From the NCBI GenBank assembly GCA_963713615.1, contig CAVQMM010000001.1:480001-544000 (forward strand): a stretch of 64,000 nucleotides of DNA. The letters run 5' to 3'. Of the stretch, positions 11,521 to 12,565 are shown in pieces (the first letter of the stretch is position 1; every line of letters starts with the position of its first letter). This stretch comes from an uncultured Chlamydiae bacterium. Its GTDB lineage: Bacteria > Chlamydiota > Chlamydiia > Chlamydiales > JAJFMA01. Position numbers and translations under genes: made by a program. The notes beneath the pieces are model-generated. The model was not told the origin of the DNA. It was given only the letters and a program-made list of their open reading frames with translations, and did not search any database.

Positions 11521-12354
11521 CTAAAAAACGAGCCCTTGCATGTCGGCCTTTATTCGTTGGGTCACTCGGTTGATGCTTGCTTCCAATTGCAGTATTAGAT
11601 CTGCATTTGCTTCCTTAAATTCCGTAGCCACAAATTCAGTCATGGCCAAGGGTAGTTGGGAGATGTCTAAAGACTCATAGACTTCAACATGGCATCTTTG
11701 AATGTGCCGAATATTTTCGGCAGGTAGAACAGCCTCATAAGATCTATTGGTTGCGATTAGATACTTTACCTTTATGACAGCGTAGAAGAGAGCTGGGGTG
11801 TCGAAGTGTTGAAGGGGTGTGCGACATGCGTACGCAGGACTTCTGGAATCTTGCACTTTTTCCATTAATTCAAAATGATTAAGGTCAGTGACAGTGATCT
11901 TGCGGTTTAGAAGTGGGGTAACATATAGGCCGGTGCCGAATTCGTGGCACCTATATCCTGCGCCGGGAACTTGATGCAAGAATGCATTAAGATGACGAAG
12001 GCCTCCACCTTGATGAACTAGGACATATGTTTCTGGGTCTCGTCCTGGGGGTAAGAAGGGCTTATTCTCGCCAGCTATTGTGTCTGGTTTCTCGTATCGT
12101 TGTTTCCATTTATCGAAACATATTTTTACCGCTTCGGCCAAATCTGACAATGCTATGTCTGTATCCTGAAAAAAATAGGCTAGCATAGACAGGCCTTGTT
12201 CACCTTTACGGTCAGAATTTCGGTCGGACGAAAAAGGTCGGATGTCGTGGTTTGTGACGAGGGCATAGCGCCAGCTATGTCCGAGGAGCAAAACGCGACA
12301 GACGATCCTTTTGCAGTCGACCGAAAACTGACCGCAAAGGTGAATAAGGCCCAT
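11521..12354 (-). CDS. Hypothetical protein with H-Y-E ADP-ribosyltransferase-like motifs; start either 12186 or 12354 (the latter includes a MITE-encoded 56-aa leader)
   Basis: Core 221 aa from MLAYFF: VLVHQGGG...GTGLYVTP...PAYA...SYEAVLP. The ATG lies inside the 8-bp target duplication of the MITE. Confidence 0.6.
   Translation of the reverse strand: MGLIHLCGQFSVDCKRIVCRVLLLGHSWRYALVTNHDIRPFSSDRNSDRKGEQGLSMLAYFFQDTDIALSDLAEAVKICFDKWKQRYEKPDTIAGENKPFLPPGRDPETYVLVHQGGGLRHLNAFLHQVPGAGYRCHEFGTGLYVTPLLNRKITVTDLNHFELMEKVQDSRSPAYACRTPLQHFDTPALFYAVIKVKYLIATNRSYEAVLPAENIRHIQRCHVEVYESLDISQLPLAMTEFVATEFKEANADLILQLEASINRVTQRIKADMQGLVF
12192..12351. mobile_element. 160-bp MITE (family B), copy 1, TSD CATAGACA
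   Basis: TIRs GGCCTTGTTCACCTTTACGGTCAG / CTGACCGCAAAGGTGAATAAGGCC; direct repeat CATAGACA at 12184-12191 and 12352-12359. Confidence 0.95.
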
Positions 12355-12565
12355 AGACAGGTGACGTTGATATCGCTGGAAGCGTGGGCCAGCCAAAAGA
12401 AAATTCGCCAGGATGGAGAGTGTGCATGACTTATAGATATGCTTTCTCCATTAGAGGTCAAAATTCTTCACAAGAACCAAAATTTTCCTATTTTAAGGAT
12501 AGGAGCGAGCGTGGTAAAAGAATGGTTCTGGTGAAGAATTCCAAAGATTTTGGAGATAACAACGC

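Follow-up and report, generated by a model that had tools for sequence, protein, structure and literature searches.

The window, a stretch of 64,000 nucleotides from the genome of an uncultured Chlamydiae bacterium (G000), holds three copies of a 160-bp MITE (Table 1), none of which lies inside a predicted gene. An orphan gene of 221 aa (11521-12186, minus strand) starts directly next to copy 1, its ATG falling within the left CATAGACA duplication. A fusion in the window ORF that runs through copy 1 (11521-12396) was considered and ruled out, the database gene call comprising the downstream 221 aa only. Copy 2 is intergenic, between a TPR gene on the minus strand and an ORF with weak likeness to rimP (below the family cut-off), and copy 3 is intergenic upstream of a catalase gene (59345), its left AACTTTTT duplication lying at the end of a further inverted repeat (arms 58774-58825 and 58927-58978). 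Further palindromic repeats lie in the window at 8607-8832, 17751-17953, 13780-14070 and 58774-58978, and a small SRP RNA gene at 11271-11370 (-).

Table 1. Positions of the three MITE copies and their duplications in the window
Feature	Position	Strand	Remark
MITE copy 1 (family A, 160 bp)	12192..12351	-	inverted relative to copies 2 and 3
Copy 1 ends	12192-12215 and 12328-12351		
Copy 1 central stem	12264-12279		
Copy 1 left target-site duplication CATAGACA	12184..12191	+	
Copy 1 right target-site duplication CATAGACA	12352..12359	+	
MITE copy 2	40784..40943	+	identical to the 80-copy master
Copy 2 left target-site duplication ACCATTGC	40776..40783	+	
Copy 2 right target-site duplication ACCATTGC	40944..40951	+	
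MITE copy 3	58979..59138	+	one substitution, position 33
Copy 3 left target-site duplication AACTTTTT	58971..58978	+	
Copy 3 right target-site duplication AACTTTTT	59139..59146	+	

The original prediction, made from the window alone, had described three copies that differ by about one base, each between different exact 8-bp repeats, and this description holds: copies 1 and 2 are identical, copy 3 has its single change, and all three duplications are exact. The 24-bp ends have the two mismatches ascribed to them (positions 7 and 17, 22/24 matching), the central CATAGC/GCTATG stem is found at element positions 73-88, and element plus duplication amounts to 168 nt, or 56 codons. At least three stop-free frames had been claimed, and three of the six are open (+0, +1 and -1). 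This count is not strong taken by itself, since 12% of dinucleotide-model sequences and 10% of palindromic controls also reach three or more open frames, as do 1.2% of base shuffles. No alignment across copy 1 was obtained in the same-genus genomes, which are about 69% identical to G000 in genes, and no joint skipping copy 2 was found in four public runs.

Copies in the source genome and their hairpin

Pairing of ends throughout G000 gave 123 elements, of which 115 measure 159-162 bp (family A), in line with the expectation of many more copies genome-wide. Eighty of the 115 are identical. An exact 8-bp duplication flanks 97 copies, with 91 distinct 8-mers; the other 18 comprise one with 9 bp, three with one mismatch, one with three mismatches and 13 with unrelated flanks. 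For 21 of the 97 an empty paralogous site is present, i.e. both flanks around a single 8-mer elsewhere in the genome, which together with the identical copies bears out an element that is non-autonomous and was recently amplified. The depth of the identical element in public peat runs is 43.9 (X1) and 17.6 (X4), and unique neighbouring pieces in X4 have a depth of about 2. The duplications are AT-rich and bounded by C or G. Insertion appears oriented: in the element direction T exceeds A in 69 of the 97 duplications and A exceeds T in 19 (p 8e-8), despite the two ends being nearly the same.

At the 13 copies with unrelated flanks (e.g. G000:C1:2189497, 2255902, 3150360 and 3368654) a neighbouring repeat stops at the element edge in seven cases and a coding-like frame in two more, which suggests adjacent deletions. 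Reciprocal rearrangement, which should leave a swapped partner, was rejected, none of the 13 having a convincing one, and the few 8-mer matches involve other ends. A composite transposon at C1:3502697-3508041 was rejected in favour of a segmental duplication, as flanks of 173 and 668 bp are common to the two copies. Targeting of other repeats was likewise dismissed, the excess of intergenic copies near repeats (48/93) over the background of 37-41% being weak. One family A copy is found inside a short element of about 56 bp with like ends (G000:C1:130119-130342), and there are further short forms of 55-67 bp. The genome also carries many other high-copy palindromic repeats, with 24-mers at 251, 242, 149 and 116 copies.

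The arms pair far beyond the terminal 24 bp, and the whole element folds as one hairpin with an energy of -84.5 kcal/mol (z -9.8) on one strand and -103.9 (z -14.1) on the other. A fold of this stability, stronger on one strand in all five lineages of the element, could be a functional RNA or ssDNA structure (an mRNA stabiliser, a terminator or a small RNA) kept by the host, and pairwise comparison of the lineages gave 96 two-sided changes that keep Watson-Crick pairing versus 56 one-sided changes. However, no match was found in Rfam and no promoter or terminator pattern at copy 2, and strand-specific G-U pairing was discarded because the asymmetry of 9:3 is not significant (p 0.15). Moreover, variants that repair the arms are enriched among genomic copies (p 8e-4), with 6 of 16 possible ones seen compared with 24 of 354 that break pairs, and in three copies the two ends are identical; DNA copying between the arms can thus produce paired changes, and can explain those observed without a functional RNA. 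We therefore regard a hairpin kept by the host as highly improbable. Orientation of the element near gene 3' ends is 20:10.

The candidate transposase

The GGCCTT ends and the 8-bp duplications resemble what we take to be traits of the IS1595 family (ISPna2-like), and the original prediction had linked the element to this family. The profile PF12762 (DDE_Tnp_IS1595), however, has no match in G000, which is 99.1% complete, and the positive control does match in one reference genome. In addition, the only long element that combines the MITE ends with a duplication, a 1883-bp IS at G000:C1:1035800-1037682, encodes a 559-aa protein of Pfam PF19936 (DUF6399). The absence of PF12762 and this DUF6399-encoding IS largely refute the IS1595 reading, and hardly any probability remains that the element, with its ISPna2-like GGC ends, belongs to that family and is moved by such a transposase. 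A search for an enzyme with the same TIRs, which had been proposed as a check, was thus successful as to the ends and gave another protein than expected. We place the MITE in an unnamed DDE family.

The ends of the 1883-bp IS match those of the MITE at 20-22 of 24 bases, and the IS has its own 8-bp duplication. It is present as one intact copy in G000; a second copy is truncated and split by an IS701-family gene. Its protein carries no transposase label in the Pfam and NCBIfam annotation, and no match to Transposase_mut or to any NCBIfam transposase model was obtained. Residues D166, D221, H243 and E473 are invariant in all 119 sequences of the alignment (the query plus 118 of 120 homologs listed; at least 1,563 homologs exist). 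In the predicted structure (pLDDT 85) the best Foldseek matches are Hermes (E 5e-5) and ISCth4 (E 5e-4), and structural comparison of the model gives Z 13.8 to an integrase core (rmsd 3.1, 144 aligned), Z 11.9 to ISCth4 (rmsd 4.0, 253 aligned) and Z 11.3 to Hermes. Nothing significant was found when solved structures were searched by sequence with the DUF6399 profile; language-model neighbours of the protein fall in clusters partly labelled Transposase_mut and ISL3. On these grounds we predict a DDE transposase with a helical insert, its modelled fold being nearest to Hermes and IS256-type enzymes.

A DUF6399 relative is present in 10 of the 300 genomes scored. In one of these (G134) a 34% identical relative occurs in four copies of 1966 bp, each with a different 8-bp duplication, and it is from these duplications that DUF6399 elements are seen to move. 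Given the shared ends, the DUF6399 protein encoded by the 1883-bp IS likely acts in trans to move the MITE, and this assigns a likely transposase function to DUF6399. In the literature searched no paper was found for DUF6399 as a term, for an IS1595-linked MITE (ISPna2, ISXO2) or for a new IS family in Chlamydiae, though the tables of PMC3942029 or the census of PMC11602168 could hold the family under another name.

Several further elements were seen in the same genome. An unclassified transposase-like gene (G000:C1:1035300-1038100; L001:1489-4300) is interrupted twice, by the intact DUF6399 IS and by a MITE copy. A second 160-bp family, family B, has 13 full copies, 10 of them identical (e.g. 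G000:C1:435987-436146, L079, with 12 other places), and resembles family A at 115 of 160 bases. A second DUF6399 IS is found at C1:1074398-1076015 and C1:1063344-1064974, both copies lacking about 95 residues of the insert and having no duplication. The ends of family B are shifted towards this second IS, one end matching at 22/24 (versus 19 for the first IS) and the other tying at 19, a possible switch of end specificity.

Insertion in genes and preservation of frame

With a hexamer gene model built on element-free G000 (2,900 genes, 81% coding), 22 of the 115 family A copies lie in predicted genes. Six of these coincide with the stop codon without altering the protein, so that 16 are inside genes proper, far below the 77% expected from target preference (p 3e-47). 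Six of the 16 are in frame and 10 disrupting, which does not differ from half (p = 0.45). When a second method was applied to those copies of families A and B that have 160 bp and a duplication of 8 bp (108 in all), one more in-frame case emerged, 8 codons downstream of an ATG, giving 7/115. A multi-copy transposase accounts for two of the in-frame cases, and a third lies in another repeat, at a doubtful N-terminus; four fusions, including one with a glycosyltransferase-92 gene, are confirmed by the gene calls of the database. In-frame insertions are thus as depleted in G000 as disrupting ones, and about 96% of those expected would be absent, as for the disrupting ones. Most insertions into genes have likely been purged. 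The proposal that the element enters coding sequence without disrupting it therefore stands in so far as in-frame cases exist, here and in lnt, deoC and cheR of relatives, which had been set as a test; it does not stand as a general property, only three of the six frames being open, and in G000 preservation of frame gives no measurable tolerance.

Related 160-bp lineages were found in three further genomes (G002, G264 and G373). Among the 15 loci of G264 one copy is clearly intragenic, in frame, and one is ambiguous. The 11 full-length copies of G002 include three that are clearly intragenic and in frame, one ambiguous copy and one at the 5' end of dnaB, and none that is clearly gene-breaking, counts that in both genomes could be biased by broken genes being harder to see in fragmented assemblies. 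All four clear intragenic copies of the two genomes use the +1 or -1 frame (p 0.012).

A search with the +1-frame peptide returned eight proteins, among them a full-length apolipoprotein N-acyltransferase (lnt) of G264, which contains the whole element in frame with the duplication TGGTTGGT. Compared with the protein of same-genus G289 the insert adds exactly 56 residues, and none of the 30 aligned orthologs has it. The catalytic residues of Lnt, which we take to be E, K and C, are in motifs that align and are intact. A match to lnt is present in 50 of 61 genomes of the order, and the gene with the insert is the only one bearing LNT_N in G264, a genome 93% complete in which a second lnt could be missing. 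In the model of this protein (pLDDT 86, pTM 0.86) the fold is kept, with the insert partly disordered between two helices; the kept fold would be weak evidence of tolerance, since the host domains would probably fold whatever the insert does. In G002 the deoC gene carries the insert in frame and its orthologs in G001, G003 and G004 are without it; deoC may be dispensable, as G000 has no deoC match. The other two in-frame genes of G002 are a cheR-TPR gene and a frame of at least 342 codons whose protein is like P0130.

The profile of the -1-frame peptide matched 126 representatives, mostly short ORFs, 19 of them of at least 200 aa; small genes are often annotated on intergenic copies (median 85.5 aa among the 126 hits). 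In 11 long database proteins the whole peptide lies at least 30 residues from both ends, and four of these have Pfam families (RecD-like, OpcA, outer-membrane efflux and TPR). Of 53 residues, 27-38 are the same in these inserts and in the nearest young peptide, and remnants of the duplicated flanks are still seen in several, their age and lineage not being separable in proteins known from protein sequence alone. In-frame copies in some genes of related genomes would add 56 residues to a protein predicted to still fold.

Other arrangements were met in the genome collection. An RmlD-family gene at L229:645-1676 has a related element immediately behind its start codon, with ATG retained in the first duplicate and GTG in the second. 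In records titled Woesearchaeota, Anaerolineae, SAR202 and Chlamydiae (L020, L033, L050-L053) there are elements 156-164 bp long that agree in their first ten bases and have duplications of 8-9 bp, their interiors being unrelated; they are among at least 43 matches of the end-pattern scan, most of those listed being due to chance.

It could be argued that selection maintains the length of 160 bp and keeps the +1 and -1 frames free of stops, less harmful masters persisting longer, as with the Rickettsia palindromic elements (RPEs). Five lineages at 72-85% identity keep both the length and the two open frames, with P about 0.01 under two nulls, in a comparison of related lineages that was chosen after seeing the data. 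Variants that create stops in these frames number 3 versus 6.9 expected, compared with 25 versus 26.2 in the other frames, and the diverged inserts in the RecD-like, OpcA and outer-membrane efflux proteins point the same way. The deficit of stops is, however, not significant (p 0.09), and a C in every third place suffices to make stops rare. There is no synonymous excess, with 5 silent to 22 replacement changes in intragenic copies and 29:94 and 31:95 in intergenic ones, and variable columns show no codon-position bias (27/26/28); selection on the peptide was accordingly rejected for every frame. The original prediction had called the element frame-preserving by its length, but relatives of 159 and 153 bp, which break the frame, also have exact 8-bp duplications and are thus mobile. 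Together with the depletion of in-frame insertions in G000 genes, these points make selection for frame unlikely. The sum of 168 nt and the scarcity of stops in two frames are most likely a matter of chance in length and composition that was inherited and then filtered by survival in genes, and not an adaptation; such an accident explains less well that both frames are open in all five 160-bp lineages.

Mechanism and relation to known elements

Overall, we think it probable that the element is a selfish, recently amplified MITE with 8-bp duplications, likely moved by the DUF6399 protein, whose insertions in genes are likely purged and of which in-frame ones are found in relatives. The DUF6399 enzyme would cut at the GGCC ends and insert at AT-rich 8-mers bounded by C or G via a staggered cut. 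By kinship with IS256/Mutator-like enzymes, transposition may be of the copy-out type through a circular intermediate, which would explain both the rise in number and the adjacent deletions; no circle junction was found in four public runs, all represented by low-depth contigs.

Several bacterial MITEs are moved by a cognate IS, namely Nezha, IMU, Correia and RUP (PMC3184786, PMC10969869). As described there, they are, like the present element, short and non-coding, share terminal inverted repeats with the IS and have target duplications, and also the long stem-loop, the mostly intergenic location and occasional in-frame fusions are common to both. Unlike in these systems, the cognate IS protein here is without transposase annotation in Pfam or NCBIfam. 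The prokaryotic Mutator-like enzymes (p-MULT: IS256, ISH6, ISLre2 and ISKra4) have, according to PMC3942029, a 99-138-residue insert between D2 and E, a C/D(2)H motif that follows the second aspartate by 11-19 residues, and 8-9-bp direct repeats. The predicted DUF6399 model is similar to these and to hAT enzymes (Hermes) in its RNase H-like DDE core with a helical insert, and to p-MULT in the 8-bp duplications and inverted repeats of 18-39 bp (PMC3942029). It has D240-x-x-H243, 19 residues after D221, the first position being D in 33 and E in 86 of the 119 sequences. The distance from D221 to E473 is 252 residues, in contrast to the insert of 99-138 given in that source (PMC3942029). The protein is therefore not filed under p-MULT, given an insert of roughly double the length and the ExxH found in most homologs.

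The likeness to RPEs lies in the palindrome of about 150 bp, the lineage of intracellular bacteria and the occurrence in frame in unrelated genes, as related in PMC10969869, PMC3733652 and PMC3767692; nearly half of the RPEs are in genes according to the review. Few copies are intragenic here, unlike RPEs: 7/115 in G000, 3/11 in G002 and 1/15 in G264. The present element further differs from RPEs in having transposon ends, 8-bp duplications, a candidate enzyme and a recent burst. We know of no mobilising enzyme tied to RPEs through which the entry of such palindromic repeats into coding genes could be explained. One RPE trait is present, namely in-frame copies in host genes whose orthologs lack the insert (lnt and deoC).

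It is tempting to speculate that an RPE-like protein-coding palindrome is seen at its birth, an active DUF6399 MITE whose length and two stop-free frames are selected and which seeds functioning genes, lnt among them, with 56-residue inserts across Chlamydiae. We hold this to be doubtful, yet conceivable; if true, young bursts, middle-aged copies and decayed copies would all be available for comparison. The behaviour in G000 is that of an ordinary MITE, and it is RPE-like in a minority of insertions in relatives. An RPE-like outcome is thus found together with intact ends, duplications, a candidate enzyme and age classes in several genomes, which makes both the mobilisation of such an element and its tolerance in genes directly testable.
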